A stretch of 32,000 nt of DNA from an uncultured Candidatus Micrarchaeota archaeon (GCA_963741095.1 CAVUGN010000011.1:9326-41325); one strand, 5' to 3'. Counted from the stretch's first letter, positions 1,958 through 32,000 are shown. Made by a program: numbers and translations. The notes: generated by a model from the letters alone, not told the origin.

Positions 1958-2007
1958 CATTTACGCTAAGACGGGAACAGAATTGTACTAACCCATATTG
2001 CGGTAAT

Positions 2008-2839: not shown

Positions 2840-2887
2840 TCCTGCTGAAGATGAAGCATAATTATAAGTATTATTTACCCCGATTCA

Positions 2888-3574
2888 ATGAACATGGCCT
2901 TCACACTTCGGACTCAAAATGAGCGCGTGCATAATGTGCGCCTTATTGCTTCCGACTGGAGCGGTGTGATAAGCGACGACAGGCGGCCGGTGTACGAATC
3001 GAACATGCGGTTGTTTGAAGCGCATGGGAAAACCCGCGTCCCTTTCGAAAAATGGCTGCCAGAGACGACGCTGACGCCAATAGAATCTTTTGCAAAGCAT
3101 GGAATCACTGGTGATCCGAAAACGCTCTTCGATGAGTACAGGAGCGCCTATGCGAAAGTGAAAAGCGAAGGGCTGAATCCTAAAGCGTACCCTGATTCGA
3201 AGACGGTACTGAAATTCCTATTCGACATCGGATTTCCCGTGGTCGTCATAAGCAGCCATCCGAGCGAGCATCTTATGGACGAGGCTTTGGAGTACGGCGT
3301 AAAGGGCTACATACGGTCATTCCTGGGGAATGTTAACGACAAAACGAGCGGGCTTTTGAGGGTCTGCCTCGGAATAGGCGAAAAACCCACCGATGCCATA
3401 TATCTTGGTGATACTGTTTACGACATCCGGGCAGCAAAGAAAGCCGGAGTGCATTCTGTCGGCGTGGCTACCGGCTATCATACTAAGGAAAGGCTAGTAG
3501 ATGAAAATCCAGACTTCGTAGTGGACTCATTGACAGAATTCCAGAATACGATCACCAAATTTTTGAGAAGATAG
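2888..3574 (+). CDS. HAD-superfamily hydrolase (phosphatase, PGP/Gph-like)
   Basis: HAD motifs occur in order: IASDWSGVISDD (motif I variant), VVVISSHP (motif II), K-x...GDTVYDIRAAKKAG (motifs III/IV). Confidence 0.75.
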   Translation: MNMAFTLRTQNERVHNVRLIASDWSGVISDDRRPVYESNMRLFEAHGKTRVPFEKWLPETTLTPIESFAKHGITGDPKTLFDEYRSAYAKVKSEGLNPKAYPDSKTVLKFLFDIGFPVVVISSHPSEHLMDEALEYGVKGYIRSFLGNVNDKTSGLLRVCLGIGEKPTDAIYLGDTVYDIRAAKKAGVHSVGVATGYHTKERLVDENPDFVVDSLTEFQNTITKFLRR

Positions 3575-7840: not shown

Positions 7841-9104
7841 AGAGATACGCCTTGACAATCTGAGCAAGATAGAGGGACACGGCAGTCTCGACATAAAGAT
7901 AGAGAACGACAAGGTAAAGTACGCAAGGCTTGAGATAACGGAAAGCAAGCGCTTCTACACCGAGGCGATACGCGGCAAGCCCGCGCTCTCGCTTCCGCTC
8001 ATGACCTCAAGGATATGCGGGACCTGCAGCATAGCGCACCTCACGTGCTGCTCCGAGGCTGTTGAGGATGCGATCGGCTACACCCCATCGGACCAAACCC
8101 TGCTGTTGAGGAAGCTGTCGATGTACGGCATGATGATACGCGACCATTCCCTGCATCTGTTCCTGTTCTGCCTGCCCGACCTTTTCAACAAGGATTCCGT
8201 GCTGGATTTCGACGAGTCGCAGAACGAGCTAATCCGAAGGGCGTTCGCGATCAAGAGCGCCGGAAACAACATGTCCAAGGCCATCGCGGGGCGCGCAGTC
8301 CATGCAACCTATGCTGAAGTTGGAAGGTTCTCGCACATACCCGCCAAAGAGGACGTCAAGAAAGTCGTGGACGAACTAAAATCGGTAAGGGGGTACGCGC
8401 TTGATTTCATAGGCCTCTTCTACAATTCCACATTCAAGATCGAGCGCGACACCAACTTCGCCGCGCTGGCAACCGAAGACTACTCATTCATTGGCGGAGA
8501 CGTGATTGACGGGAGCGGATACCACATAACCGAAAAACGGTATCGCGACTACCTGGAGAATATCGTCATACCCTACTCGGAGGCGATGGGCTACGACTTC
8601 GAGGGCAAGGAGTTCCTGACCGGGGCGCTTGCAAGGATGAACATAAACAGGGCGAACCTGCACGCAGACACGAAGACAGATGTTTCAAAGTTCCTGAACG
8701 TTTTCCCGTCGAAGAACGTGTACCACAACAACCTGGCGCAGGCGATAGAGATAGTGCACTGCATAGACCATTCAATAGAACTTCTAGAATCGAGCGAGTT
8801 CAAGGAGGAGCAGAACGCGACCCCTGTTGTAAAGGCAGGAGAGGGCATCGGCCTGATCGAGGCCCCAAGAGGCCTTTTGTACTACATGCTCTCGATAGAC
8901 GGCGCGGGCAAGGTGAAGTACGGCAACATAATAGTCCCGACGCAGCAGAACCAGATAGGCATGGAGAAGAGCATCATACAGATGGTGCAGGAGAACATGG
9001 ACAAGGACAGAAAGCAAATCGAGTACGAGATAGAGAAGCTGATAAGGGCCTACGACCCCTGCATGAGCTGCGCGAGCCACTTCCTCAAGATAAACTGGAA
9101 ATGA
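7827..9104 (+). CDS. [NiFe]-hydrogenase large (catalytic) subunit
   Basis: The N-terminal metal-site motif RICGTCSIAH and the C-terminal motif DPCMSCASH are followed by a short tail, FLKINWK. IEGHG lies near the N-terminus. Its 425 aa is typical of group 3 enzymes. Confidence 0.9.
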   Translation: MHRDEEIRLDNLSKIEGHGSLDIKIENDKVKYARLEITESKRFYTEAIRGKPALSLPLMTSRICGTCSIAHLTCCSEAVEDAIGYTPSDQTLLLRKLSMYGMMIRDHSLHLFLFCLPDLFNKDSVLDFDESQNELIRRAFAIKSAGNNMSKAIAGRAVHATYAEVGRFSHIPAKEDVKKVVDELKSVRGYALDFIGLFYNSTFKIERDTNFAALATEDYSFIGGDVIDGSGYHITEKRYRDYLENIVIPYSEAMGYDFEGKEFLTGALARMNINRANLHADTKTDVSKFLNVFPSKNVYHNNLAQAIEIVHCIDHSIELLESSEFKEEQNATPVVKAGEGIGLIEAPRGLLYYMLSIDGAGKVKYGNIIVPTQQNQIGMEKSIIQMVQENMDKDRKQIEYEIEKLIRAYDPCMSCASHFLKINWK

Positions 9105-9117
9105 TTAGAACTTATCC

Positions 9118-9133
9118 CCTTTGGAGTCAAAGG
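9118..9133 (+). terminator. Possible terminator hairpin after the hydrogenase genes
   Basis: Perfect 6-bp inverted repeat CCTTTG-gagt-CAAAGG, 14 nt after the stop codon and preceded by a T-containing pyrimidine run. Archaeal terminators are poorly defined. Confidence 0.25.
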
Positions 9134-9329
9134 TGTAAACGCTATCCAGAAATACAGAATCTCTAATGAAGCTTATTGGTCGAAGCCCAGCTGCGTCACC
9201 ACGCCGAGCCCTCTTCCCAACCTATACAATCCTCTCATATCCTCTCGAGCCAGCCATGCTAGAATGGCGAGATGAGCCAGTGTCGGAACATTTTAATAAA
9301 CTGCTTGAGATACACAAGGGGCTGGTGGG

Positions 9330-10556
9330 ATGAAGAATGTCGGTAAAATAGTGGTCGGCATATTCGTATTGGCTGTTCTGGCTGCGATTGGGTTTTTGTA
9401 CCTGCACACCGGTTCATCAAGTGCAAATACCATCAACTACCAACCGATATTCCTTACGGATCCACCCTCGGTCCCTGCAGAAACTAGCGCGCTCATAATA
9501 AATTATTCCTTGTTAGAAGTGAATATCAACGGGTCGGCTGGTTCAGGATTGGTTATGGCGCCCAACGGAAGCGGTTCCATCAACCTGCTTGCGGCAACAA
9601 ACTCCAGCCAACTTATGGGGGTAGCAGTCGTGCCTGCGGCAATGAAAAATGCAACAATAAATGAGGTGCGCTTTAGTATTTTCTCGGCTTCAATAACCAT
9701 CAATGGAACCACAACTAACGTGATCGTGCCTAATCGCGATTTCACGGTGTACATAGTCGGCCGGAACAAGCTTAATTCGACCACTGGCGTGATCATTGAC
9801 TTCTCACCAACGATTATCACCATATACGGCAACTCTTCGACCGAATTCGCGCTTGTCCCTTCAGCAAGGGGCATTGTGGTGGCAAATGCCACATTGCACG
9901 CGCATGTGAACTCACGGATCGGAGAGAAAGTCGATCTAGACAATCTGGAAAGGGCAAGGATCGATAGCATTCGTCCTAATATAACCATAACGTCGGCATC
10001 GCTATCAACGCTTGGAAATTCTACTAGCCTTAGCATTACGGTGAAGGACAACTCCAACCAGAGCGTCATGTTGCATAACCTGATTGTGTTTGGCAATGAG
10101 AGCGTGCATACAATACCTTTCAATGAATTCAATTCAATCGTAAGGGGGCGATTCGGCTTGGGCATAGGCGGCTCAGAAGTTTTTGGAATGGGTGGCATCG
10201 GAACCTGGCAAAATGAGTCTACCAACACGACCCCGCATAACAATTTCGAAGTTCAAGGCGCACTCAGCGTTGGCATCGTTTCGCAGTCATTGAAAGTGCT
10301 GAACTTCCTTATCGCGGACAACGGAACCTTGGTCCTGCCGCGCACTAGAATAGGGGTGGACAACATCCTCCAGCAAAACAACGGACTCGGCGGATACAAT
10401 CTAAACTCCGGCTCCAGCACGACCTTCACCTTCAACGGTCCGATATCCTATGGCTTCGGGCACGTTACCATCGAATCGGTGGCTGGTGACACTTATCGAC
10501 TAGTTGTCTCAGGCGAGGAAGGAGCACGCGCGACCGCAAACCTGATTGCGACTTGA
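9330..10556 (+). CDS. Membrane-anchored extracellular glycoprotein (DUF4382-like pattern)
   Basis: N-terminal signal/anchor (IVVGIFVLAVLAAIGFLYL), then FLTDPP...LIINYSLLEVNING...INLL...VRFSI...ITINGTTTNVIVP, which resembles the DUF4382 layout. It has more than a dozen N-x-S/T sequons. Confidence 0.45.
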   Translation: MKNVGKIVVGIFVLAVLAAIGFLYLHTGSSSANTINYQPIFLTDPPSVPAETSALIINYSLLEVNINGSAGSGLVMAPNGSGSINLLAATNSSQLMGVAVVPAAMKNATINEVRFSIFSASITINGTTTNVIVPNRDFTVYIVGRNKLNSTTGVIIDFSPTIITIYGNSSTEFALVPSARGIVVANATLHAHVNSRIGEKVDLDNLERARIDSIRPNITITSASLSTLGNSTSLSITVKDNSNQSVMLHNLIVFGNESVHTIPFNEFNSIVRGRFGLGIGGSEVFGMGGIGTWQNESTNTTPHNNFEVQGALSVGIVSQSLKVLNFLIADNGTLVLPRTRIGVDNILQQNNGLGGYNLNSGSSTTFTFNGPISYGFGHVTIESVAGDTYRLVVSGEEGARATANLIAT

Positions 10557-10596
10557 TTCCACCCAAACTGCTTGACCTGTCAAATCCCTAATCAAA

Positions 10597-12051
10597 CTAA
10601 TTGCAAGTGTAGTTTTTAGGGAACGCTATATAGAAGTTCGTAAAGTTTACCGTCCTTGTCACATTATTGAAGTTTATTGGGGAATTGTTTGAGCCCATGT
10701 CCGTAAAGAATACGATCGGGTAATGCTCTATGCTTGAATTGTAATAGTAAGGCGAATGGGCCTTTATGCCAGCATAAATCAGATACACCCAATCATTCGA
10801 TACGACATCACAACCGCCAAGCCCTTGCGAGGCAAGACTGTTGGCCACCGTTTTATAGATGGGATTTGTGGAGCCGTAAGCCCCAAAACCATGGTCTGTG
10901 TACAGAGAATTATATGCATAAACCAGCATGCCAACCGTGATAAGAAACAACAAGACTGCAAGATATGCGTGTAAGTCTTTACCGAAGGGCAATCCCACCT
11001 TAATGTCCGATAGATCGGTGATGGCTATAATCAGAGCCAAAGCAATTCCCAAGTATACCAGATAAGCCTCTCTAGGCAAATCGTTGATGGAACCGGAAAC
11101 TGCAGTCAAAAGCCAGCCAAACGAACCGACAAGAAGCGAAGCAAAGACAACCTTATACCTATAATTAATCTTTATCCTGTTTGTTATACCATCCTTCTTT
11201 TTATTGTACAGATGCCTGGCTAACAGAGCAATCATAAAAATCAGAAAAGCCGGCAGTAGATAGGGCAAAACCAATTTCAACGACTCTACGATTATGGAAA
11301 TAGAGAAAAGCCCCTGGGCGTCTCCAGAGAACGAGTTTATGGATGTCAAATAGCTCCATACGGGATTGTGAAAGGTTATGGTGTTGAAAATCAACCATGG
11401 CAGTGTGATCATCATGAACGCGACAAACGCCTTTTTCCTTACCTTATCGGGCATCACCAGGAGCAACAACAGAAATATCAGCGAATCGTATTTCGCCAAG
11501 CCCGCGATTGCCAAGAAAATTCCTGACTCCCATCTTTTTTTGAATACAAGTCCTATAAAGACGAGTAGAAAACTCATGGATACAATTTCTGCACCGTTCA
11601 ACATCAAGAAGAAGAATATCACACACGGCGTAAAGAATAACAAAGTAATCAAAAGTGGATCAGTCTTGGTACTTTTCGACAGATAAAGAAGGGACGCTAA
11701 AAGCAGAAGAAGCGCAAACGTTAGATAAAGGGGTACGCCGATGCCAGTGCCCAATGCCATAAACGGTAGCATCAGAACGCCTATCAAAGGGGGCCTAAGA
11801 GTTTCGAAATAAAATGAATTTTCATAGCTTATGGCATTACCAAGGTTCCCATTAAAAAACGCAGAATAAAATTTTGCGGTAAGCAAGGATTTAGCGTAGA
11901 GCACCTCCGCAACAAAATCCCACCGTATCCCGCCAATTCTGTATGCGGCAAGAACAATTGTCAAAGCGAACGCAAATATCACAAAGATTAGCACTATAGA
12001 TAAAACAGAGATTACCTGTTTTTTGCGATTTGACACGATACCCTCCCTCAA
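10597..12051 (-). CDS. Polytopic membrane protein, GT-C-type glycosyltransferase-like (PMT_2/ArnT-like)
   Basis: It has more than 10 hydrophobic segments. The first loop contains ETLRPPLIGVLMLPFMALG, resembling the HPPL motif of GT39/GT83-like enzymes. A C-terminal soluble tail is present. Its start overlaps the stop of the endopeptidase gene by 4 nt. Confidence 0.5.
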   Translation of the reverse strand: MREGIVSNRKKQVISVLSIVLIFVIFAFALTIVLAAYRIGGIRWDFVAEVLYAKSLLTAKFYSAFFNGNLGNAISYENSFYFETLRPPLIGVLMLPFMALGTGIGVPLYLTFALLLLLASLLYLSKSTKTDPLLITLLFFTPCVIFFFLMLNGAEIVSMSFLLVFIGLVFKKRWESGIFLAIAGLAKYDSLIFLLLLLVMPDKVRKKAFVAFMMITLPWLIFNTITFHNPVWSYLTSINSFSGDAQGLFSISIIVESLKLVLPYLLPAFLIFMIALLARHLYNKKKDGITNRIKINYRYKVVFASLLVGSFGWLLTAVSGSINDLPREAYLVYLGIALALIIAITDLSDIKVGLPFGKDLHAYLAVLLFLITVGMLVYAYNSLYTDHGFGAYGSTNPIYKTVANSLASQGLGGCDVVSNDWVYLIYAGIKAHSPYYYNSSIEHYPIVFFTDMGSNNSPINFNNVTRTVNFTNFYIAFPKNYTCN

Positions 12052-12470
12052 GACAAATTGGCGGAGATAGCCTCCTTGAGCTGCTTCAGGGCCTCCCTCT
12101 CACCCATCCTCATTGGCACCCCGAATATCATTACGCTGTCAAGCAATTTCAGCTTCTTGAGGAGCTTGAGGCTGTAACCCAAATCGAAATCGTGCATCGT
12201 GTAGACCTTCTGGGTCTTTATCGCATCTATCTCCTTTATCAAGACGACCTTGTCAATGCCCTCAACGCTGTCTATTATCACGAGATCCCTGCCCTCCTTC
12301 TCGAGGTTCTCGTTCGGATCGAACTCCTTGAACTCGATGTCCTTGAATTCTTGCCTCAGCCTTCCAATCAATTTCAGAGGCAGACTGTCCTTTTCGACCA
12401 TCGGGTTCCCGAAAACTAGCACCTTGCGGTTTTTCAGTTCACCACTCTTGTCCTTGCTGATTTTGGGCAA
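12048..12470 (-). CDS. Hydrogenase maturation endopeptidase (HycI/HybD/FrhD family)
   Basis: VLVFGNPMVEKDSLPLKL (GN..x..D motif), VIIDSVEG and MHDFDL provide the acidic/Asp/His metal ligands in the family order. Size ~140 aa. Confidence 0.75.
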   Translation of the reverse strand: MPKISKDKSGELKNRKVLVFGNPMVEKDSLPLKLIGRLRQEFKDIEFKEFDPNENLEKEGRDLVIIDSVEGIDKVVLIKEIDAIKTQKVYTMHDFDLGYSLKLLKKLKLLDSVMIFGVPMRMGEREALKQLKEAISANLS

Positions 12471-13006
12471 TCCCCTTTGGCAGCCAGATCGGCTGCCCTT
12501 ATCTCATTCATTCTGTTGGCGATAGAGTCCGATATCCGCTCAACTGCAAATCCGGAATGGACCGCGACATTGTCGCCTTCCTTCAAGCCCCTGGCGAAGT
12601 CGGTTCTGCATCTTTTTACACCGATTGGCGTACTGACCAACGCGGAATTGGCTTTAATTTCGACAACCTTGCCCGCATAAGTCTTGCATTCGACAGGGTC
12701 GAAATCCTTCCTGATCTTGAACTGCTCATCGACCGCCTTGTTGTGCTCCATCAGGAAATACTGCCTTATCACATCCGCGTCTATCGTTTTCTTGCCCGAT
12801 TTCATCGCTATGATCGTGCACATCGCAATTCCGACCTTGAATATGTTCTCCGCGCCCTCTTCAGGAAGCCTATCCTCGGACACGAGCTTCATGAGGCTGT
12901 CGATGCGTTCCTGTGTAGTAATCCTATTGTTGATGAGATCGTTCGAGCAGGGCAGCGCGTACTTCAGGAACAGCAACCGGCTATCCTCATCTATCTGCAT
13001 CCGCAC
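12434..13006 (-). CDS. HypC/HupF-domain protein with ~105-aa N-terminal extension
   Basis: The C-terminal part, ECKTYAGKVVEIKANSALVSTPIGVKRCRTDFARGLKEGDNVAVHSGFAVERIS, matches the HypC OB-fold, including the VHxGFA motif. The N-terminal 105 aa are unassigned. Confidence 0.6.
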   Translation of the reverse strand: MRMQIDEDSRLLFLKYALPCSNDLINNRITTQERIDSLMKLVSEDRLPEEGAENIFKVGIAMCTIIAMKSGKKTIDADVIRQYFLMEHNKAVDEQFKIRKDFDPVECKTYAGKVVEIKANSALVSTPIGVKRCRTDFARGLKEGDNVAVHSGFAVERISDSIANRMNEIRAADLAAKGDCPKSARTRVVN

Positions 13007-13194
13007 CCTCCCATCATCTCTTCAGCTTCGTCCTTATCCATCTTCTCTATCGCAATACCTGCTGAAAAGAGCACGTAATCTCCTTTCTCGACCTTGACGA
13101 GCTTTGCGTCGAGCGTCTTCTTTTCCCCGTTGTATTCGATGGTTATGCTGCCCTTGCCAACGCTTGTCACCCTACCAACGGTTGCTTGGCACAT
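12991..13194 (-). CDS. hypC: Hydrogenase assembly chaperone HypC
   Basis: It starts with Met-Cys (MCQATVGRVTSV...) and carries GDYVLFSAGIAIEKMDKDEAEE. At 67 aa it has the classic HypC size and layout. Confidence 0.8.
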   Translation of the reverse strand: MCQATVGRVTSVGKGSITIEYNGEKKTLDAKLVKVEKGDYVLFSAGIAIEKMDKDEAEEMMGGCGCR

Positions 13195-13204
13195 TTTGGC
13201 ACCA

Positions 13205-14053
13205 TCAATTAGCAGACCTGACCCTGCTTTGTGAGAGCTCGGTTACAACAACTCCGGGTATAATCCTATTCAAGGCGTTGAGGTCCGCGAAGCCTTTCGA
13301 CACTATCACGCTGCACTTGAGTTCGTCCACCGCTATTTTTATGTCCTTTTTGACCTCATTTATGTTTTTGTAATACTGTATGATGTACGTGTTCTTCAGA
13401 TCTAGATTGTATTTTTTTGCCAGCGCGTTGTAATCGCTTACGGTCTCGTTGGTCACGAAGACAAAGTGCTTCTCGTCGTGCTCTGCGTGGGCCGGTTTGG
13501 CCTCCTTCTCCTCCCCATCGTCTTTCAACGCCACAACTGGCTTTACGGATATCCTTCTATCCTTCAGTCTTTCCCCGAATTCCGGATCCTCCTTTTTTAG
13601 AATTTCAATGATATCCTCTATCATCTTGACCTGCGCCCTGGGGTTTTCGACCTCTTCCAGCTCCTTCCTGTCCTTCGCTTTCCTAGCTATCCCTATGAGC
13701 TTCAGGAAGCCTTCGCCATAAGCCTTCAAAAGCCTCGCATCGCCATGCTCGTCATGAAACATCGAGAAAAGTATGTTCATCCCTCCGCACTTCTTGCCGT
13801 GACCAAGGGACACTACCAATTCGATGTTAGGATTCTCTACAAGCATCTGCTTCAGACCGCCTTCAAACCGCTCGACGTCCCCGCCGGCGTTGCCGATCAC
13901 CATAACTTCGCCGCTGTCATATTTTTCGAGCAATTTCTTCATGTCCTTATTCTGCCACATCTCTTCGTTCAGCCTCCGGTCCATGCACCTTATAACCACT
14001 ACTTTTATCTTTGATGATGACCTCTCTTCCATTGCCATTAAATCACCAGACAA
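13205..14053 (-). CDS. Beta-carbonic-anhydrase-like domain protein with C-terminal extension
   Basis: The ordered motifs VVIRCMDRRL (CxDxR), VIGNAGGDV (xNAG) and SLGHGKKCGGM (H-x3-C-G; canonical is H-x2-C-G) lie in the first ~95 aa. They are followed by an acidic/Lys-rich linker and a ~100-aa unassigned domain. It is the first gene of the hyp-like operon. Confidence 0.45.
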   Translation of the reverse strand: MSGDLMAMEERSSSKIKVVVIRCMDRRLNEEMWQNKDMKKLLEKYDSGEVMVIGNAGGDVERFEGGLKQMLVENPNIELVVSLGHGKKCGGMNILFSMFHDEHGDARLLKAYGEGFLKLIGIARKAKDRKELEEVENPRAQVKMIEDIIEILKKEDPEFGERLKDRRISVKPVVALKDDGEEKEAKPAHAEHDEKHFVFVTNETVSDYNALAKKYNLDLKNTYIIQYYKNINEVKKDIKIAVDELKCSVIVSKGFADLNALNRIIPGVVVTELSQSRVRSAN

Positions 14054-24015: not shown

Positions 24016-24091
24016 GGGGAGCTACGCTAACCTGGCAGACCATCAGCCTTGGGCGCTGACAATCGGAGTTCAAATCTCCGGCTCCCCACCA
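24016..24091 (+). tRNA. tRNA-Pro (UGG) with encoded CCA; integration target
   Basis: Acceptor GGGGAGC 24016-24022 / GCTCCCC 24081-24087. The anticodon stem is TCAGC/GCTGA with loop CTTGGGC (TGG at 24050-24052). The T arm is CGGAG-TTCAAAT-CTCCG (24064-24080), followed by A24088 and CCA 24089-24091. The D stem pairs poorly in every register I tried, which lowers confidence. Confidence 0.7.
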
Positions 24092-24210
24092 GGAAAATTA
24101 TCGACGACAAAATTCGCCTTTTCGACGTATGTTGGAGATGTGGACTGTATTCAACAAAACTACATGTAAATCTGGTATAGTTCCAGGTATAGTCTTGAGT
24201 ATAGCTTATA

Positions 24211-24471
24211 TTATTTCCTATACTCATAATGGCTCACGGCCTTGCCGTACCTGCTACTTATGTTCTTTGAGATGTAATCAGCGACATCTAACGGCTCCTT
24301 GCCGTCCGTGAACCTGGCCTTGACCACGAATCCGCAGTCGCCTTCGGTCAGTAGGACCTCCTTGACGGACTCGAACATCATCAGCTTCTCTGCGATCCCG
24401 CCGGCGTCTGCGTTCTCTTTTGGCCTTACGAAATAGAGCCCGTACATCGCGCCTATTCTCTTTTTACCCAT
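24211..24471 (-). CDS. Stand-alone RAM (Lrp/AsnC ligand-binding) domain-like protein, 86 aa
   Basis: LYFVRPKENADAGGIAEKLMMFESVKEVLLTEGDCGFVVKARF fits the beta-alpha-beta-beta-alpha-beta RAM pattern (compare xVxxVxxVTGxYDxxxxV). It is nucleotide-identical to 29420..29680. Confidence 0.6.
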   Translation of the reverse strand: MGKKRIGAMYGLYFVRPKENADAGGIAEKLMMFESVKEVLLTEGDCGFVVKARFTDGKEPLDVADYISKNISSRYGKAVSHYEYRK

Positions 24472-24486
24472 GTCAATCCACCATAA

Positions 24487-24627
24487 TCATAATCGGTCTA
24501 TATCAAGCAACTTGACGAACACGCTGTGGCATCTGTCGCATTCCTCGATCACGAACCTGCCGTTCACCACCCGCTTGCACACCAGCCTTCCTGTTCTGCA
24601 CCTGCTGCATGCAACGCCGCCGTTCAT
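24487..24627 (-). CDS. 46-aa zinc-ribbon protein (not in the ORF track)
   Basis: Hand translation gives MNGGVACSRCRTGRLVCKRVVNGRFVIEECDRCHSVFVKLLDIDRL, with CxxC...CxxC. Its ATG overlaps the upstream stop (ATGA at 24624-24627). It is conserved as a 47-aa version in copy 2. Confidence 0.6.
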   Translation of the reverse strand: MNGGVACSRCRTGRLVCKRVVNGRFVIEECDRCHSVFVKLLDIDRL

Positions 24628-24893
24628 CCCTCGATCACCTTACCGTATTCACCGTCCAGTCCTTTCGATATGTACGCGGCAGCGTCCTTGGGTTCAGCAC
24701 CGACGAAAAACTTCACCTTCGCCAGGAACACGCCCTTGTTTTCCATCAAGTTGACTGCCTTCACGCGCTTTAGGGCAAGGAGCCTTTCCGCAAGACGTTC
24801 GCTGACACCGCTCTTCGAATTCCCGAAGTAGAGACGGTGCCAAACCGCATGGCTCGCGCTAACCCTTGTTATTTTTCCACCCGTATTACACAC
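24624..24893 (-). CDS. Stand-alone RAM-domain-like protein, 89 aa (paralogue of the 86-aa protein)
   Basis: RLYFGNSKSGVSERLAERLLALKRVKAVNLMENKGVFLAKVKF has the same pattern as the 86-aa protein. It has a GTG start and differs from copy 2 at 9 aa. Confidence 0.55.
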   Translation of the reverse strand: MCNTGGKITRVSASHAVWHRLYFGNSKSGVSERLAERLLALKRVKAVNLMENKGVFLAKVKFFVGAEPKDAAAYISKGLDGEYGKVIEG

Positions 24894-24939
24894 CCACTTA
24901 TTTGCTTACTTTTACATCATCCTGACAAACATGAAAATA

Positions 24940-25140
24940 TCATCTGGACGCTAAAACAGCCCGCGCGGATCCGGATCCGTCAAGCAGCATAACCGACCTT
25001 CCGGTCCTTTCCAGCTCGCACGCGTTAATGTGCCAAAGATATGCGACTGGATTCTCATGCTCCATACCGCACATCCAGCACTGGTATGCATTATCGTGCC
25101 CTCCCAAAAAGATATCTTTTATTCTTGTTCCCATGCCCAT
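24940..25140 (-). CDS. C2HC (C2H2-like) zinc-finger protein, 66 aa
   Basis: YQCWMCGMEHENPVAYLWHINAC gives C-x2-C-x12-H-x3-C, the classical zinc-finger spacing. It is the first gene of the micro-operon. Confidence 0.55.
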   Translation of the reverse strand: MGMGTRIKDIFLGGHDNAYQCWMCGMEHENPVAYLWHINACELERTGRSVMLLDGSGSARAVLASR

Positions 25141-25265
25141 TCTACCACCCCATCAATCATGAGGGTAGGGGGTTGCACCGCGGAAGCATGGTGATAATGT
25201 GGAGGACGAGCTTGCGCTGATCCGTAGAAAATTCTTACTTCCACCCCTGTACAACCTACACACCC
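25141..25265 (-). promoter_or_regulatory. Conserved 125-nt non-coding leader of the micro-operon (candidate structured RNA)
   Basis: By eye there are only 5 substitutions versus 30350-30474, so it is better conserved than the adjacent zinc-finger CDS. There is no ORF. Nested complementary segments and a GCAA-capped hairpin are possible on the minus-strand transcript. Confidence 0.35.
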
Positions 25266-25413
25266 ATATGATATTATGAACTTTGTTGTATATATAAGCA
25301 GCCTCGGTTTTTAAGCTGAAGAAACTATAAAAATTGCTATTTTTGTTTAATATTTTTCCAGTTATTCAAATATCATATACTGTATAATTAGGAATATAGA
25401 GGAGATTAGTAAA

Positions 25414-25423
25414 GTATAAATAT
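25414..25423 (+). promoter_or_regulatory. TATA box for the double-Lrp gene
   Basis: gtATAAATATc is centred ~28 nt upstream of ATG 25446. The same ATAAATATC core sits ~26 nt upstream of the paralogue start (30617-30625). Confidence 0.4.
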
Positions 25424-25445
25424 CTGGCTCTATACAATATTATAT

Positions 25446-26867
25446 ATGAAAGAGATACCTTTTGAGGCAAACAAGGAGCTCGAGCGCCTCAAGAAAGAGT
25501 ACAAAGCGTACCTTTACGTCAGGATCATAGACGGAAAGTTCTATGTCTACAAAGGGAGCTCAATTTGGGATAAAGAAACTAAGAAGGTGAGGGGGCTTAC
25601 CGAGTATCTAGGACGGATAGATGAAAACGGGAAGTTCATAAAGAAGATTTCTAACAAAAAAAAGATCCCGATACAGACGCTCGTTCAAGGAACTGCTCCG
25701 CAAGCCATCCAAACGCTGGTCGACCAGTCTGAGATAAAATTATTGAGAATCCTGAGCATGAATGCAAAGGCAGATTTGTCTTTTCTCGGAAAGAAGTTTC
25801 TAGGGATCAACTCTTCCGCAACATTCTACAAAGTAAGGCAGCTGAAGGAGAGATATGGCATAAAGGGTATTGCTGAAATAGATGTTACGAAGCTTGGCTA
25901 CACTGACTATATAGCTTTTGTGAAATTCGAGGGCGACAAGCCAAGCGCGGATAACATAAGGAAGGCCACTTTGGACGAAAGCCAGGTGCAACTAGTGCTT
26001 GCTACCAACGGCGAATATGACTTAATAATATACTTCTTAGCCAAGGATAATTTCGATGCATCGGAATTCATATTCAATTTGAGGTACAAGGAGCATCTGA
26101 AGACATGTATATCACAATGGTATTTCTCTCCCATTGACATATGTTATAACTTTATTCCATTAAGAGACCAGTTTTTCGAGCTGATGAAAGAAAAAGTATG
26201 GGTAAAGAGCAGGGAAAGTCAACGCAGATTGGAGGGGCAGCTCACCATCAAGGAGTACAATATACTAAGGGAATTGAACAGAAATGGTGTCGCAAAGTTC
26301 TCAGAAATGGACAAGAAACACGGGCTGGGCGGGGAAGAAACCGCATACATCTACGAAAAGCTTATTGAGAGAGGTATACTCAAGAGGATGACAGTAAGTC
26401 TTCAGAAAATACCTTTGCAATATAACGCAGTAATCATAATGGGTGTGGTTGACAACAATGGCTTCAGGCGGACTAGAGACAGGCTGCTGATGGATGTAAT
26501 AGAGGAGAACGGTACGCCTATCAACAAGTATTCTGTAATGGGAAACATAGGAAACCCTGATGGCGTCATGTTTATAATGCCGATAACTCCGAACAACAGG
26601 CTCGATGTATTCGAAAGTGAGTTCAAGGAGAGGATAAAAGGTGTGGCACTTAGAACTCTCATAGTCACTGACGTGCTCGTTGGTTCATTATGTTACAGGA
26701 AGTTTGACAACGCAAAGTCTAGGCAATACCGGGCACTGCGGATGGAGGGCAATACAGAGCTATCATTAGCCGATGTAGACTACGATGAAACAGTTAGAAG
26801 GAAGCAAGTTATCAAGAAAGGTGAGGATACAATAGAAGAACTACTCGCCAATAATGAAAATATATAA
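25446..26867 (+). CDS. Tandem Lrp/AsnC-like protein: N-terminal basic hairpin motif plus two HTH+RAM modules
   Basis: Module 1 is EIKLLRILSMNAKADLSFLGKKFLGINSSATFYKVRQLKERYGI (HTH), then YTDYIAFVKFEG...VQLVLATNGEYDLIIYF (RAM). Module 2 is EYNILRELNRNGVAKFSEM...YIYEKLIERGIL (HTH), then YNAVIIMGVVD...VMGNIGNPDGVMFIM (RAM). The N-terminus reads YLYVRIIDGKFYVYKGSSIWDKETKKVRGLTEYLGRI. Confidence 0.6.
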   Translation: MKEIPFEANKELERLKKEYKAYLYVRIIDGKFYVYKGSSIWDKETKKVRGLTEYLGRIDENGKFIKKISNKKKIPIQTLVQGTAPQAIQTLVDQSEIKLLRILSMNAKADLSFLGKKFLGINSSATFYKVRQLKERYGIKGIAEIDVTKLGYTDYIAFVKFEGDKPSADNIRKATLDESQVQLVLATNGEYDLIIYFLAKDNFDASEFIFNLRYKEHLKTCISQWYFSPIDICYNFIPLRDQFFELMKEKVWVKSRESQRRLEGQLTIKEYNILRELNRNGVAKFSEMDKKHGLGGEETAYIYEKLIERGILKRMTVSLQKIPLQYNAVIIMGVVDNNGFRRTRDRLLMDVIEENGTPINKYSVMGNIGNPDGVMFIMPITPNNRLDVFESEFKERIKGVALRTLIVTDVLVGSLCYRKFDNAKSRQYRALRMEGNTELSLADVDYDETVRRKQVIKKGEDTIEELLANNENI

Positions 26868-27030
26868 TGCAGGAATAGAATGCAATAACTACTGATGTAT
26901 CTTACAGAAATTAGCTAATTAAACTACCCTCCTGGTCCTTCCATATCTTCACCTGTCCAAACATCTCTGAAAAGGCTTAAATAGCTTGTGTCCGTTTGAA
27001 ATGGGCCAGCGCGAATGCTCGTATAAACAA

Positions 27031-27056
27031 CATCGAACCACGTCGGGCGATGTTGT
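27031..27056 (+). repeat. Cassette-boundary repeat, copy D (short, degenerate)
   Basis: CATCGAACCACGTCGGGCGATGTTGT aligns with the 5' part of copies A-C. It can form an AACATCG/CGATGTT hairpin. Confidence 0.5.
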
Positions 27057-27119
27057 ATAATTGTCTTCATCACGGTGCATAGATAAGTATTTATACTTAT
27101 TCTACATAATATACTTAAT

Positions 27120-27350
27120 GTGATGAAGATGACAAACATGACACTGGCCCTGCCGGAAGCGCTCACTGAGATAATGAAACGGCACAAGGACATAAAATGG
27201 AGCGAGGTGGCCCGCGAGGCCATCTGGGACAAGGCGAGGAAGCTGGAGCTCATGGACAAGATCCTCTCCAAGAGCGAATTGACCGAAAAGGACGCGTTGG
27301 CGATAGGCGCGAAGATAAACGAAGCCGTAGCTAAGAGGCATGGGTTATAA
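27120..27350 (+). CDS. vapB: Ribbon-helix-helix antitoxin (VapB-like)
   Basis: MTLALPEALTEIMKRH...WSEVAREAI is a CopG/RHH-type N-terminus. It overlaps the PIN gene by 11 nt. The ATG at 27123 is an alternative start. Confidence 0.65.
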   Translation: MMKMTNMTLALPEALTEIMKRHKDIKWSEVAREAIWDKARKLELMDKILSKSELTEKDALAIGAKINEAVAKRHGL

Positions 27351-27759
27351 CGTGATCCTGGTCGTGGACGCCAATGTGGTGATTGCCGCATTGGTAAAGA
27401 ATGGCAAAGTGCGTGAGATCCTGCTTAGCGACAAGTTCAAGTTCGTCGCACCTGATTTCGTGAAAGAGGAGACTCTGAAATACCTCGATCTAATAAAACA
27501 AAAGTCGGGACTTGCGAAAGACGACCTGGACCTGCTCATAACCCTACTGTTCCAAGAGATAGAAACCATACCCAGAAGCGAGTATCAATCGCAACTTCCC
27601 AAAGCCGAAAGGATGATAAAAAATGATGTAAAGGATGCACCATACGTTGCATGCTACCTGGCGCTGAAATGCGACGGGATCTGGACGAACGACTCGGACT
27701 ATGATGGAAAACCAGAACTGAAAGTGTTCAAAACAGAATACCTTCTGAAATTATTGTAA
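27340..27759 (+). CDS. vapC: PIN-domain toxin (VapC-like)
   Basis: LVVDANVVIAALV (first Asp), FVKEETLKYL (Glu), DAPYVACYLAL (Asp) and WTNDSDY (Asp) are the four acidic PIN residues, in order. Confidence 0.75.
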   Translation: MGYNVILVVDANVVIAALVKNGKVREILLSDKFKFVAPDFVKEETLKYLDLIKQKSGLAKDDLDLLITLLFQEIETIPRSEYQSQLPKAERMIKNDVKDAPYVACYLALKCDGIWTNDSDYDGKPELKVFKTEYLLKLL

Positions 27760-27780
27760 TCCACAACCTTTAGACTTGGG

Positions 27781-27854
27781 CATCGTCGAACCATGTTGAA
27801 CCACGTCGAACGACGTCGTTTCCCAATTGCACTTTTACGACGAAGAACCGGCTC
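27781..27854 (+). repeat. Cassette-boundary repeat, copy A (full length, degenerate att-like end)
   Basis: The sequence is CATCGTCGAACCATGTTGAACCACGTCGAACGACGTCGTTTCCCAATTGCACTTTTACGACGAAGAACCGGCTC. It shares both halves with copy C, including the terminal CCGGCTC of the att core. Confidence 0.7.
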
Positions 27855-27865
27855 GCGTCGTGCTA

Positions 27866-28186
27866 CTAGATCTCCAAACCCTCTTTGAGAGCGGCACTGA
27901 CCAAAGTGATACCTTTTGCCTCCCTCTCGAACTCATTTTTGGTGTAGCTTAAGAAATCCACGGGATAGTCTATCCCCTGCGATACGTGCCATTCCAAAAG
28001 GAGCTTGCTGATCAGCTTCTTTACGGGTTTCCTGATCACAACCAGAAGGTCCACATCGCTGTCCTTCTTTGCCTCGCCTCTTGCCGAAGAACCGAAGAGT
28101 ATGATCCGCTCTATTCCGTACGGCTTGGCGACGCTCTCCTTGAAGCCTTTTATCGTTTTTATCAATTGAGGATTGACCTTACCCAT
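27866..28186 (-). CDS. Minimal nucleotidyltransferase (MNT) of a HEPN/MNT pair
   Basis: ILFGSSARGEAKKDSDVDLLVV is the GSxxRG...DxD NTase motif. It overlaps the HEPN gene by 25 nt. Confidence 0.8.
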   Translation of the reverse strand: MGKVNPQLIKTIKGFKESVAKPYGIERIILFGSSARGEAKKDSDVDLLVVIRKPVKKLISKLLLEWHVSQGIDYPVDFLSYTKNEFEREAKGITLVSAALKEGLEI

Positions 28187-28584
28187 TCCAAAACACCTTC
28201 ACACTTTTCAATCACGTCCTTTGCTTCATCTTCCGAAACGGACCTTGTTACTGGATAGCGCGTATCCACGTAATACTCGGTAAGATCGGCACAATAATTA
28301 ACTATCTCTGCAGTTGCCTTAATGCTTTGGGCGAGCTTCACGAGGTCATGCGTCCTGTCAAATCGGCTCAACTTCTCTATCTGTGCAGCTTTCAACGCCT
28401 TCTCCGCTACCTGCTGGGCATAAAAGGATGCGTCCTTGAGCCTCTCGCTTTCATAGAGAAGCTTTGCAGTCACGAGATTGTCCTCGGCTTCTTTTATCCA
28501 CACTCGTGCATCATCTTTCATGTCCTCATAAGAATTTGCCTTAAAAACCTTAATAATGTTTGCAGTTGGGCCACATTCATCCAA
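28162..28584 (-). CDS. HEPN-domain protein of a HEPN/MNT pair
   Basis: AKLLYESERLKDASFYAQQVAEKALKAAQ, THDLVKLA and YYVDTRYP (the R-x4-6-H-type HEPN region). The likely true start is ATG 28521. Confidence 0.75.
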   Translation of the reverse strand: MDECGPTANIIKVFKANSYEDMKDDARVWIKEAEDNLVTAKLLYESERLKDASFYAQQVAEKALKAAQIEKLSRFDRTHDLVKLAQSIKATAEIVNYCADLTEYYVDTRYPVTRSVSEDEAKDVIEKCEGVLEWVRSILN

Positions 28585-28654
28585 AATATTTGAATATGTG
28601 TTTTTTTTAAGTGAGTCTTATTCCTTCGTAATGACTCCTAACTCGAAACACAAA

Positions 28655-28696
28655 CATCGTCGAACCACTTCGAACACCGTCGTTTCCCAATTGCAC
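28655..28696 (+). repeat. Cassette-boundary repeat, copy B (5' half only)
   Basis: CATCGTCGAACCACTTCGAACACCGTCGTTTCCCAATTGCAC matches copy A except for the 9-nt internal duplication in A. It diverges after TTGCAC. Confidence 0.7.
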
Positions 28697-28746
28697 CGCC
28701 AAAGTACCACACCATAAGAAATATAAAGCAGAAATGCACAATATTA

Positions 28747-28995
28747 GTGATAAAGATGGAAATGGAAGTGTACGGATTCAAAGCCAAGATAACCAAGGAA
28801 GGTAAGTATCTCATAGGCGAGATACCGGAGCTGCATGTAGCTGATCAGGCCAAGACCCTGAAGGAACTCGAGAGCGAACTCAAGGATGCGGTAAGCCTAG
28901 TTGTAAATCTTATCCTGGACAATCCAAAAGATGCAGCCAAGAACTTCGGTAACGGTGTCATAAGAAAGCTGAGCGTTCAGGTAATCCGCGCATAG
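28747..28995 (+). CDS. hicB: HicB-like antitoxin
   Basis: YGFKAKITKEGKYLIGEIPELHVADQAKTLKELESELKDAV fits the HicB/UPF0150 N-terminal fold pattern. It lies immediately upstream of hicA. The probable start is ATG 28756. Confidence 0.6.
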   Translation: MIKMEMEVYGFKAKITKEGKYLIGEIPELHVADQAKTLKELESELKDAVSLVVNLILDNPKDAAKNFGNGVIRKLSVQVIRA

Positions 28996-29003
28996 GTGTA
29001 TCC

Positions 29004-29225
29004 ATGTCGCGGTTACGCCCGCTGAAAAGTCCTCTCCTCATAAAGGTGCTGCAGAAATACTACGGCTACAACGCACGCTCTGGAAGCGGCAGGCATATAG
29101 TTTTGCAGGACTCGGATGGTCATACGACTGTGATCCAGCTTAACATGGAACTCGGCAAAGGCATCCTGAAGAAGATACTAAATCAAACTGATTTGAAGTG
29201 GAAAGAAATAGAGAAGTACCTCTAA
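29004..29225 (+). CDS. hicA: HicA-like mRNA interferase toxin
   Basis: LIKVLQKYYGYNARSGSGRHIVLQDSDGHTTVIQLNMELGKGILKKILNQTDL follows the HicA pattern (GF..x..GSH...P.H..l..G.l..Il). Confidence 0.7.
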   Translation: MSRLRPLKSPLLIKVLQKYYGYNARSGSGRHIVLQDSDGHTTVIQLNMELGKGILKKILNQTDLKWKEIEKYL

Positions 29226-29229
29226 ATGA

Positions 29230-29300
29230 CATCGTCGAACCACGTCGACCAACGATGTTTCTCAATCACACTTTTACGTCGAAGGACCGGCTCCCCACCA
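29230..29300 (+). repeat. Cassette-boundary repeat, copy C, fused to the duplicated att core
   Basis: CATCGTCGAACCACGTCGACCAACGATGTTTCTCAATCACACTTTTACGTCGAAGGACCGGCTCCCCACCA. It starts 5 nt after the hicA stop, and its last 14 nt equal the tRNA-Pro 3' end. Confidence 0.75.
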
Positions 29301-29419
29301 GGAAAATTATCGACGACAAAATTCGTCTTTTCGATGGATGTTGGAGATGTGGACTGTATTCAACAAAACTACATGTAAATCTGGTATAGTTCCAGGTATA
29401 GTCTTGAGTATAGCCTATA

Positions 29420-29680
29420 TTATTTCCTATACTCATAATGGCTCACGGCCTTGCCGTACCTGCTACTTATGTTCTTTGAGATGTAATCAGCGACATCTAA
29501 CGGCTCCTTGCCGTCCGTGAACCTGGCCTTGACCACGAATCCGCAGTCGCCTTCGGTCAGTAGGACCTCCTTGACGGACTCGAACATCATCAGCTTCTCT
29601 GCGATCCCGCCGGCGTCTGCGTTCTCTTTTGGCCTTACGAAATAGAGCCCGTACATCGCGCCTATTCTCTTTTTACCCAT
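29420..29680 (-). CDS. Stand-alone RAM-domain-like protein, 86 aa (copy 2)
   Basis: The protein is identical to 24211..24471. Confidence 0.6.
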   Translation of the reverse strand: MGKKRIGAMYGLYFVRPKENADAGGIAEKLMMFESVKEVLLTEGDCGFVVKARFTDGKEPLDVADYISKNISSRYGKAVSHYEYRK

Positions 29681-29695
29681 GTCAATCCACCATAA

Positions 29696-29839
29696 TCATA
29701 ATCGGTCTATATCAAGCAACTTGACGAACACGCTGTGGCATCTGTCACACTCCTCGATCACGAACCTGCCGTTCACCACACGCTTGCATACCAGCCTTCC
29801 TGTTCTGCACCTACTGCATGCAACTCCCTCGCTGTTCAT
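29696..29839 (-). CDS. 47-aa zinc-ribbon protein (copy 2, not in the ORF track)
   Basis: Hand translation gives MNSEGVACSRCRTGRLVCKRVVNGRFVIEECDRCHSVFVKLLDIDRL. It has the same ATGA overlap with the upstream gene. Confidence 0.6.
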   Translation of the reverse strand: MNSEGVACSRCRTGRLVCKRVVNGRFVIEECDRCHSVFVKLLDIDRL

Positions 29840-30105
29840 CCCTCGATCACCGTTCCGTAGTCGCCGTCCAGTCCTTTCGATATGTACGCGGTAGCGTCCT
29901 TGGGTTCAGCACCGACGAAAAACTTCACCTTCGCCAGGAACACGCCCTTGTTTTCCATCAGGTTGACTGCCTTCACGCGCTTCAGTGCAAGCAGCCTGTC
30001 TGCAAGGCGCTCGCTGACACGGCTCTTTGGATTCCCGAAGTAGAACCGGTGCCAAACAGCATGGCTCGCGCTGACACTTGTTACTTTTCCACCCGTATTA
30101 CACAC
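29836..30105 (-). CDS. Stand-alone RAM-domain-like protein, 89 aa (copy 2)
   Basis: It differs at 9 of 89 aa from 24624..24893. Confidence 0.55.
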   Translation of the reverse strand: MCNTGGKVTSVSASHAVWHRFYFGNPKSRVSERLADRLLALKRVKAVNLMENKGVFLAKVKFFVGAEPKDATAYISKGLDGDYGTVIEG

Positions 30106-30151
30106 CCACTTCTCTTGCTTTCTTTACCTCATTCTGACAAACATGAAGACA

Positions 30152-30349
30152 TCATCTGGATGCGGAAACAGCCCGCATTCCTAACTCGCCAAGCAGCATC
30201 ACCGGCCTGCCGGTCCTTTCCAACTCGCAGGCGTTTATGTGCCACAGATATGCAACTGGATTCTCATGCTCCATTCCGCACATCCAGCACTGGTACATAT
30301 TATCGTGCCCTCCAAAGAAGATATCCTTTATCCTTGTTCCCATGCCCAT
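30152..30349 (-). CDS. C2HC zinc-finger protein, 65 aa (copy 2)
   Basis: The zinc-finger core is identical to copy 1. The C-terminal ~15 aa diverge, with a 1-codon indel. Confidence 0.55.
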   Translation of the reverse strand: MGMGTRIKDIFFGGHDNMYQCWMCGMEHENPVAYLWHINACELERTGRPVMLLGELGMRAVSASR

Positions 30350-30646
30350 TCTACCATCCTATCAATCATAAGGGTAGGGGGTTGCACCGCGGAAGCATGG
30401 TGATAATGTGGAGGACGAGCTTGCGCTAATCCATAGAAAATTCTTACTTCCACCCCTGTACAACCTACACACCCGTATAGTATCGCGTCATATCCGGTAT
30501 TTATTAGATACAGAAGACAGGGCGGTAGTATTGATAAAGCGAAAACATTAAAACATATAAATTTATCATTAAGCGCTCAATCTTCAATTGTTATACATTA
30601 AGGATTTAACAAAAGGAATAAATATCCTCTTATTTGATATAACTAC

Positions 30647-32000
30647 ATGCAAGACGTTCCACCACAGATATCTGCTGCTTTCGAGAAAGTGAAGAAGACG
30701 TACCCGTTCTATGTCTCGCTGAAGAGGATATACGGAAAATATTACGTATACAAAGTGAAGGTCGTCTGGGACCGACTAACCAAAAAGACAAAAACAAATT
30801 CTGAGTACTTGGGCCGGATAACCAGCGATGGGAAATATAAAAAGAAGAGCATCACACCGAATGATTACCTGAGAAAGGCCGAGGCACTCATCGCTTCCAA
30901 AGGTGGGAAGATAACGTGGGACGGAATTGAGAAAGTCCGGGGTGCAAACGAGCAGATTAAAGAGGAACAGATCGAGGAAACTGTTGCCGACGAATTGGAA
31001 ACGAAGATACTGACTATATTGAGTATGAACGGCCGCGCGTCGATACCTTTCATAAGCAAGATGGTTGGTCTTAGCAATGCTACAACAGATTATCACGTAA
31101 AGAAGATCGAAGAGAAATACGGCATCAGATATTTTCCAGAGATAGACGTAGACAAATTAGGTTATGCCAGCTTTATGATATCCATAAAATTTGAAGATGA
31201 GGTTCCGAGTGCAGAAGAGATTAAAAGAGAGCTTAGCAAATTTCCTGGAGTACAACTTGCAATGGTAACTCATGGTAGATATGACCTAATAATTCATTTT
31301 GTAACCGGGACCGAATATATGCCAAATAGTTATGGATGGGCATCTCAGAATGAAATATATGACCTCCAAAATAATGCTTTTAGAGCAAACAAGGCAAAAT
31401 GGTACGTGTCAACGTTTTACAGAACATATGGATGCGTACCGTTGAGAAACGAATTTTTTGATATGATGAAGAAAATAGTGTGGGAAAAAAGCAAAGAGAG
31501 CAGGAGACCTAAGCCAAATCAACTTCTTCCTAGGGAGTATTTCGTACTAAAAGAACTAAACTTAGATGGTAGGTGCGAATTCACAGAAATAGACAATAGA
31601 TGCAATTTTGATAGGGGTAGATCAGATTACACCTATAAAAGATTAGTTGAAAATAAAACAATAAAACGCATCACGTTGACAATGCAGAAACCTCCGGTAA
31701 AGTATGTGGCAATAATCTATATGGATTTTATAAAAAGAGATGAGTTTTCAAAGAGCAGAGTGAATCTTTTATTAGACATAATAGAGCGGCGAACACAAAT
31801 AAACAAATACGCACTTGTTGGCGATGCGAGCATTCCATATGGTGGATTCTTCATACTGCCGATAACTCAAGATGGGCTACTAGAAAAAGTCACCGAGCAA
31901 TTAAAGAGCATAAGCGGCACAAACGTATACGCTCTTGTTGCAAGCGAGATAGTCTTAGGTAGCCTTTGTTATAGATTATTTGATAACGCATACTCAAGCC
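30647..32000 (+). CDS. Tandem Lrp/AsnC-like protein, divergent paralogue of 25446..26867 (3' end beyond the window)
   Basis: It is not in the ORF track because no stop is reached. Hand translation from ATG 30647 stays open to nt 32000. It has the same N-terminal motif (YGKYYVYKVKVVWDRLTKKTKTNSEYLGRI), two HTH+RAM modules (ILTILSMNGRASIPF...; VTHGRYDLIIHF; EYFVLKELNLDGRCEF...) and the conserved LGSLCYRLFDNA near the end. Confidence 0.65.
   Translation, partial: MQDVPPQISAAFEKVKKTYPFYVSLKRIYGKYYVYKVKVVWDRLTKKTKTNSEYLGRITSDGKYKKKSITPNDYLRKAEALIASKGGKITWDGIEKVRGANEQIKEEQIEETVADELETKILTILSMNGRASIPFISKMVGLSNATTDYHVKKIEEKYGIRYFPEIDVDKLGYASFMISIKFEDEVPSAEEIKRELSKFPGVQLAMVTHGRYDLIIHFVTGTEYMPNSYGWASQNEIYDLQNNAFRANKAKWYVSTFYRTYGCVPLRNEFFDMMKKIVWEKSKESRRPKPNQLLPREYFVLKELNLDGRCEFTEIDNRCNFDRGRSDYTYKRLVENKTIKRITLTMQKPPVKYVAIIYMDFIKRDEFSKSRVNLLLDIIERRTQINKYALVGDASIPYGGFFILPITQDGLLEKVTEQLKSISGTNVYALVASEIVLGSLCYRLFDNAYSS

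Follow-up and report, generated by a model that had tools for sequence, protein, structure and literature searches.

We analysed a 32,000-nucleotide stretch of DNA (hereafter, the window) from an uncultured Candidatus Micrarchaeota archaeon (GCA_963741095.1 CAVUGN010000011.1:9326-41325), with a focus on positions 24016-32000, where a unit that we call E1 and the beginning of a second, E2, lie head-to-tail behind a tRNA-Pro gene. The units are probably elements that bear attachment (att) sites and lack an integrase, accreted at tRNA-Pro and moved by a tyrosine integrase acting in trans. This reading is built on the anatomy of the array, its recombinase-free units, a truncated integrase gene beyond them, intact paralogues of that gene and the polymorphism between strains, and no new mechanism is needed.

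In the mechanism that we propose, small (5-7 kb) units would accrete successively at the tRNA-Pro(TGG) 3' end, each with a complete attP-type site and no integrase, and would behave like cis-mobilizable elements or satellites. Recombination of attP with the attB in the tRNA would be the work of an Xer-like tyrosine integrase that bears a zinc ribbon at its C terminus and whose gene lies outside the units; integration would regenerate the tRNA, here with an added genomic CCA, and leave attP-like junctions between neighbours. The right part of the unit would have grown likewise, by three toxin-antitoxin (TA) operons, each followed by its own copy of the att site's P arm with a decayed core. The candidate enzymes are encoded by a full-length gene that a sister strain carries next to tRNA-Pro, by a paralogue at another place in the genome and, formerly, by the now-truncated copy; which of them acts, and that the units continue to move, we infer.

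The window has exactly two copies of the 14-mer CCGGCTCCCCACCA, at 24078 and at 29287, in agreement with a preliminary description of this DNA in which the 14-nt end of tRNA-Pro was seen to recur at 29287-29300. From these points, 24078-25269 and 29287-30478 align with 93.4% identity over 1196 columns; a repeat of 1.2 kb lies far above chance expectation. The same description gave a constant offset of 5209: the copies are indeed collinear over ~1.19 kb, but this offset holds at both ends and becomes 5212 in the middle, because of two compensating 3-nt (codon) indels (genes of 46 vs 47 aa and 66 vs 65 aa). As had been claimed, the repeat begins within the 3' end of the tRNA: the sequences 5' of the two 14-mers are unrelated, being the tRNA body in one case and a different 70-nt segment ending in ...cacttttacgtcgaagga in the other.

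The encoded CCA, on the other hand, had been taken as part of tRNA-Pro. Judged by comparison between strains, the native gene ends at 24088, where the Rfam call (24016-24088) also stops with CCA excluded, and the CCA at 24089-24091 is supplied by the integrated element, because tRNA-Pro in strains with non-E occupants terminates in ...CCGGCTCCCCA, that is, at the discriminator base, and the tRNA-His and tRNA-Ile of the window have no encoded CCA. CCGGCTCCCCA is the core that E1 has in common with all other inserts at tRNA-Pro.

The content of E1 (24078-29286, Table 1) was described correctly beforehand as small proteins, one large double-Lrp protein and three TA pairs, as our calls of open reading frames (ORFs) and Pfam show. 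The TA pairs are adjacent small genes of recognised families, as in type II systems: PIN_2 (91.9 bits) with RHH_12, HEPN (96.2 bits) with NTP_transf_2 (55.6 bits), and HicA (30.4 bits, cut-off 27) with a weak HicB partner (UPF0150, 16.4 bits vs a cut-off of 27.3). Purifying selection is seen on p46, p89 and p66.

That the complete copy holds no recombinase, and no split halves of one, is supported by our searches. The unit ORFs gave no recombinase-like match in Pfam, NCBIfam or PHROGs, and tblastn with six integrases (E<=1) found the truncated copy described below and nothing in the window; no integrase remnant lies inside E1 or E2, and neither conjugation genes nor remnants of them were found anywhere. 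In SSV-type integration the att site lies inside the integrase ORF, so that the integrated element has an Int(N) fragment on one side and an Int(C) fragment on the other. A split integrase of this type was considered and rejected: blastx of the junction of P arm, core and P' arm against 225 integrases gave a best E of 2.6, and the window has no integrase match.

The preliminary description had offered an unrecognised mechanism as an alternative, in which the 473-aa protein encoded by the large gene of E1, or the small zinc proteins, would be a new recombinase that moves the unit. The large gene (hereafter BIG) does encode the only large protein conserved in every unit, with a few invariant Tyr, Arg and Ser residues and an N-terminal 68-residue beta-domain that has no structural match. 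However, the AlphaFold model of the 473-aa protein (pLDDT 84.5) consists of two winged helix-turn-helix and RAM modules, a tandem Lrp/AsnC (FFRP) fold, and Foldseek returned NirDL as the best match (4ch7, E 3e-12) together with many Lrp/AsnC structures (E 1e-5 to 1e-4), with no recombinase or nuclease fold. Its Pfam matches stay below gathering scores; the predicted function is that of a Lrp/AsnC-type regulator. Moreover, the arms of the att sites are conserved but BIG is hypervariable, the opposite of what is expected for an enzyme that recognises the arms, its homologues elsewhere are single-copy and not flanked by att sites, and intact conventional tyrosine integrases are on hand, both at tRNA-Pro in a sister strain and elsewhere on the contig. 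We therefore regard a new recombinase as hardly credible.

Exact-protein look-ups led from the window to ENA contig_23960 (574 kb), which is 99.9% identical to window positions 24164-32000. Extending the DNA past nt 32000 had been proposed as a check, and it revealed both a third att copy and an integrase gene, so that the two copies first described become at least 3-4 units, arranged head-to-tail. The third att lies at window-equivalent position 36,680, 7393 nt past the second; E1 is thus bounded by the core CCGGCTCCCCA(CCA) at 24078 and 29287, and E2 (7393 bp) likewise. E2 has two large genes, of 498 aa and 459 aa, and repeats the three TA pairs of E1; the TA blocks of the two units are 97% identical. 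Past the third att, E3 carries p86, p46, p89, p66 and a BIG allele of 470 aa. The p86 protein is 100% identical across E1, E2 and E3, and divergence between units climbs from p86 (pS 0-2%) toward the large gene.

The sole recombinase gene of the array is a Phage_integrase ORF past E3, at window-equivalent ~39,679-40,461 (~7.7 kb beyond the window), convergent with an APH-like gene. It matches PF00589 (E 3e-18) over Pfam positions 32-171 of 172, and R14, K40, H112, R115, W138 and Y147 are invariant in our alignment A1, so that the catalytic set R...K...HxxR...W/H...Y is present. The ~170-178 N-terminal residues found in the full-length proteins P0003, P0004 and P0005 are absent, and with them the N-terminal core/arm-binding domain. 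Nucleotide homology begins abruptly at nt 534 (533 nt in) of an 88%-identical full-length gene, and an in-frame stop stands 3 codons upstream of the fragment. By these signs the gene is 5'-truncated, its N-terminal DNA-binding part gone, and we saw no accelerated decay (3 vs 4 unique changes). The earlier suggestion of a recombinase beyond nt 32000 that acts in trans thus holds for the presence of a tyrosine-recombinase gene there; this copy, however, is truncated, and the intact paralogues lie elsewhere.

The full-length relatives of the truncated integrase (372-429 aa) are immediate 3' neighbours of tRNA-Thr genes, and in one case the 3' end of the tRNA carries a 13-nt att. The design is the one seen at tRNA-Pro. 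In sister strains L057/L058, a full-length 395-aa integrase (Int395) begins ~75 nt past tRNA-Pro and has a Cas4-like gene behind it. The 574-kb contig itself bears an intact paralogue, P0149 (397 aa, 60% identity to Int395), beside an intron-containing tRNA(CAT). The integrases nearby have an extra C-terminal zinc ribbon and coiled coil, and the recombination system around the tRNA-Pro locus is conventional.

Three further observations concern the surroundings of these integrases. The intron-containing tRNA(CAT), at L061 9820-9935 just upstream of P0149, was missed by ARAGORN in bacterial mode. The Cas4-like gene (228 aa; PHROG 1706, E 1e-4) follows both intact integrases (L057 1-239, L061 11204-11890), hinting at a multi-copy family of integrase-bearing elements in the host genome; the L057 contig stops inside this gene and the L061 contig ~700 nt past it. 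Finally, L012 1-6314 is a near-palindrome (pyruvate kinase, tRNA-Thr, integrase facing integrase, tRNA-Thr, pyruvate kinase), which is due either to misassembly or to an inverted duplication at a site of integration.

The junctions between units all follow one plan. In the 11 distinct att junctions found on 7 contigs, a P arm of ~70 nt (two GAACNRCGTCG repeats and a ACGTCGAA box) is followed by a core of 11-14 nt, identical to the tRNA 3' end, and by a P' arm conserved over ~120 nt or more. The P arm is unchanged whatever the cargo to its left, be it HicA, PIN, the BIG tail, an S66 peptidase or the unrelated element Y. Inside E1, the P-arm copies R0, R1 and R2 each come after one gene block. 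In L003, L005, L009 and L010 the PIN cassette is directly followed by a full att, and in the window a half core comes next, then two more cassettes with a P arm each. The right part of the unit has thus probably grown cassette by cassette, its internal cores decaying afterwards.

As a separate observation, P-arm copies are broken repeatedly at one point, past CAATYRCAC and ~15 nt 5' of the core (window 28690-28714; L005 reverse strand near 11300), which suggests a second recurrent junction. A CWRCG match between a reading frame of the P' arm and the integrase zinc ribbon was discarded, as it was not significant and not kept in the junction variants.

Such a layout raises the question of an integron-like platform, in which a terminal tyrosine recombinase captures short cassettes (TA operons, BIG) that each end in a recombination site. 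The attC sites of an integron fold into imperfect hairpins, and beside its attI stands an integrase of the IntI type. It is in keeping with this idea that every TA operon (0.6-0.9 kb) has a P-arm copy of its own behind it, that a recombinase gene stands at the array end, that the P-arm breakpoint past CAATYRCAC recurs and that TA cassettes are typical of chromosomal integrons. The repeats, however, are not attC-like hairpins: single-stranded DNA folding gave z-scores of -1.0, +0.65 and -0.13 against shuffles, with only R0 reaching -2.4. Likewise, the recombinase is Xer-like (26-40 bits with integron-integrase models whose cut-offs are 265-435), it sits at the end distal to the unit variation, its relatives are ordinary tRNA-adjacent integrases, and the cassettes have their own promoter regions. 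An integron-like platform is accordingly quite improbable, and we return to integration in trans at tRNA-Pro as the preferred explanation.

The sister-strain loci, which we located via their PAPS-reductase neighbour, bear on this directly. In four assemblies, 12 kb of left flank is 99.9-100% identical to the window, and the identity ends at 24088 or 24099. L059 has the arrangement of the window, with E1 after tRNA-Pro. L055/L008 carry element Y (GmrSD, DUF2268 and others), an att, a unit E0 (a 441-aa BIG allele, a radical SAM gene and an S9 peptidase), a further att and p86, L056 has element Z, with two radical-SAM genes, after tRNA-Pro, and in L057/L058 the Int395 gene and its Cas4-like neighbour stand there. 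L002 is 100% identical to the window from 24078 onward, yet has E0 upstream. Strains with near-identical flanks thus differ by four inserts at one tRNA-Pro, and turnover would therefore be recent and gene flux ongoing, by ordinary tyrosine-recombinase chemistry. In L003/L005 (~12930-13725), near tRNA-Thr(CGT) and NosD, a unit breaks off within p46 and is joined to a prephenate dehydratase gene; the array has therefore been involved in a larger chromosomal rearrangement.

The same data allow us to weigh a plain segmental amplification, by which a single ancient insertion or a native cluster beside tRNA-Pro was multiplied by unequal homologous recombination, with the 14-nt match copied along. 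The long (1.2 kb) arms with 93-99% identity, the 97% identity of the E1 and E2 TA blocks, the composite structure of E2, the illegitimate junctions in L003/L005 and the existence of BIG and p86 as an ordinary chromosomal pair in other Micrarchaeota would all fit. On the other hand, BIG genes from adjacent units share only 31-42% identity and fall into separate deep clades, so that neither is a copy of the other; unrelated inserts (Y, Z and the Int395 element) occupy the same nucleotide position behind 100% identical flanks; and the unit boundaries always fall at the tRNA-derived core. Thus, amplification by itself is improbable, and the original proposal of tandem site-specific integration at tRNA-Pro is upheld by the uniform junctions, the divergent BIG genes and the flank-identical strains that differ 3' of the tRNA.

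Several points weigh against integration in trans. Homologous recombination between the arms clearly reshapes the array as well, and between arms of 1.2 kb it could make much of the polymorphism; E2 is clearly a deletion composite, and L003/L005 have the truncated unit fused to prephenate dehydratase. The sequences all come from metagenome assemblies, which are interrupted at these repeats, and the unit order may be partly chimeric. No attR was found within 6.6 kb past the truncated integrase with 1-4 mismatches allowed, the attP and P'-arm patterns had zero matches in IMG/VR and the JGI metagenomes, and neither an empty tRNA-Pro site nor a free circular form was seen (small contigs that carry BIG showed no terminal overlaps when checked for circularity). 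As regards the enzyme, no intact integrase has so far been linked to an E-type attP, the P' side of the Int395 element differs from that of the E units, the relatives of the truncated integrase target tRNA-Thr, and these att sites share no arm motifs with the att of the element of a related integrase (L014). Finally, at 39 other Micrarchaeota loci BIG-p86 is chromosomal and usually single-copy, with no integrase close by and no tRNA-derived direct repeat that encloses BIG, so that the core genes look host-like rather than element-like.

The BIG family itself is essentially restricted to Micrarchaeota: we found it at 39 loci, 37 of them labelled Micrarchaeota or Micrarchaeota lineage and the other 2 Acidoferrum and Marsarchaeota; it is present in the complete Ca. 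Micrarchaeum A_DKE genome and has no relatives in IMG/VR. Outside the array, BIG is usually a single-copy chromosomal gene, often divergently paired with a p86 homologue. The array of this genome, by comparison, holds four to six very divergent alleles. In a rough neighbour-joining tree they are scattered in different deep clades among alleles of other species, and the 31-42% identity between the large genes of neighbouring units indicates that the units are not recent copies of each other.

The BIG cassette (~25296-26935) has sharp left and right boundaries, identical in six units (the window and its L004/L008/L005 equivalents). Its flanks are >93% (93-99%) identical and its inside falls below 42% protein identity, with a GC content of 0.40 vs 0.52 for the chromosome and no allele found twice in one array. 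The BIG gene with its promoter thus acts as a discrete swap cassette. As speculation, BIG and its RAM and zinc partners might form a heteroimmunity-like identity module which, if true, would explain why a different deep-branching allele sits in each unit between near-identical arms. It is a tentative and rather unlikely extension of this idea that the units are an undescribed, Micrarchaeota-specific class of integrase-less elements, with the hypervariable tandem-Lrp and RAM/zinc-finger core as the one constant part and as an element-specific immunity or identity module, and with tRNA-Pro as a platform that accretes cassettes and provides a reduced DPANN genome with TA and defence genes.

Table 1 Features of the tRNA-Pro locus in window coordinates, with element assignments as predicted from the sequence.
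Feature	Position	Strand	Description
tRNA-Pro(TGG)	24016-24091	+	ARAGORN call
attL core CCGGCTCCCCACCA	24078-24091	+	tRNA-Pro 3' end
P' arm of E1	24092-24210	+	conserved non-coding, 97-99% identity among units, GACGAC..GTCGTC hairpin
p86	24211-24471	-	small RAM (Lrp ligand-domain)-like protein
p46	24487-24627	-	4-Cys zinc-ribbon protein; pN/pS 0.05-0.2
p89	24624-24893	-	paralogue of p86
p66	24940-25140	-	C2H2-type zinc-finger protein
Variable BIG cassette	25296-26935	+	own promoter region and 473-aa tandem Lrp/AsnC ORF (25446-26867); GC 0.40
Conserved tail and R0	26936-27067	+	R0, degenerate P-arm copy without core (27027-27067)
VapBC-type pair	27120-27759	+	RHH antitoxin 27120-27350 (RHH_12), PIN toxin 27340-27759 (PIN_2, E 5e-26)
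R1	27781-27854	+	full P arm and left half-core CCGGCTC (27848-27854)
MNT/HEPN pair	27866-28584	-	MNT 27866-28186, HEPN 28162-28584; Pfam
R2	28655-28714	+	P arm broken off past caattgcac (28655-28696) and possible right half-core CCACACCA (28707-28714)
HicB-like/HicA pair	28747-29225	+	HicB-like 28747-28995, HicA 29004-29225
R3	29230-29300	+	full P arm (29230-29286) and full core (29287-29300); attP-like E1/E2 junction
E2 start	29301-32000	+	P' arm, then small genes, then second BIG allele
E2 small genes	p86 29420-29680, p47 29696-29839, p89 29836-30105, p65 30152-30349	-	
E2 BIG allele	from 30647	+	498 aa in full, runs past window end

Elsewhere in the window, the segment directly 3' of tRNA-His (1886-1958) has a GC content of 0.375 vs ~0.52 (1959-3000) and contains a 201-aa ORF (2008-2613) without Pfam match. 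This is possibly an old island, although the 3' end of tRNA-His does not recur in the window. A second segment of lower GC (9100-12100, 0.457) contains an unannotatable 408-aa ORF (9330-10556) and a GT87-like membrane glycosyltransferase (10597-12051).

The relevance of the locus lies in its host group, since the genomes of DPANN archaea are tiny and little has been charted of the mobile elements in them. Most passengers at this tRNA-Pro hot spot have no integrase, their cargo consists of TA and defence-type genes, and the locus flags a Micrarchaeota-wide tandem-Lrp family of unassigned role.

Among known systems, elements of archaea that integrate at tRNA genes, with integrases of the non-partitioning (pNOB8) or partitioning (SSV) type, have reportedly been described in work by She, Garrett and colleagues. 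The locus resembles them in having a tyrosine recombinase and a short att that equals the 3' end of the tRNA, and in the serial integration at a single tRNA. It differs in that the units themselves contain no integrase, the att is not straddled by Int(N)/Int(C) halves, and the integrases nearby have the extra zinc ribbon and coiled coil. With chromosomal integron arrays it has in common short TA operons that are each followed by a recombination-site-like repeat, and a recombinase at one end; unlike in integrons, the repeat combines a double-strand-type arm with a tRNA core rather than a folded attC, the recombinase is not IntI and the cassettes are not promoterless.

The tycheposons and tRNA-flanked island arrays of Prochlorococcus (bioRxiv 10.1101/2020.12.28.424599) offer a further parallel, as successive integrations at one tRNA push older elements inward there too, and partial tRNA repeats, fragmented integrases and co-existing subpopulations that differ by single elements are found in both. 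Tycheposons, however, have their own tyrosine recombinase and replication module, and these units have neither.

Cis-mobilizable elements (CIMEs) are defined as att-flanked elements without integration or transfer genes, decayed from an element that once had them and mobilised by the integrase of another (PMC5704250). They undergo tandem accretion with ICEs (elements that are integrative and conjugative) and IMEs (integrative and mobilizable ones), for example in the ICESt1-related islands of Streptococcus thermophilus (PMC5704250; ICEberg 2.0, PMC6323972). The units described here likewise have att-type flanks at the 3' end of a target gene and no integration or transfer genes inside, stand head-to-tail with other elements at that one gene and, as in CIME/ICE islands, have decayed neighbours and a truncated integrase beside them. 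Unlike CIMEs and ICESt1, they reside in an archaeal host without conjugation genes or remnants, every unit keeps a conserved regulatory module rather than a random remnant, and their cis-mobilisation is putative. The element family itself appears to be undescribed; as an island, it is of a known, hitch-hiking kind, here with a gene set and in a host group that are both new.

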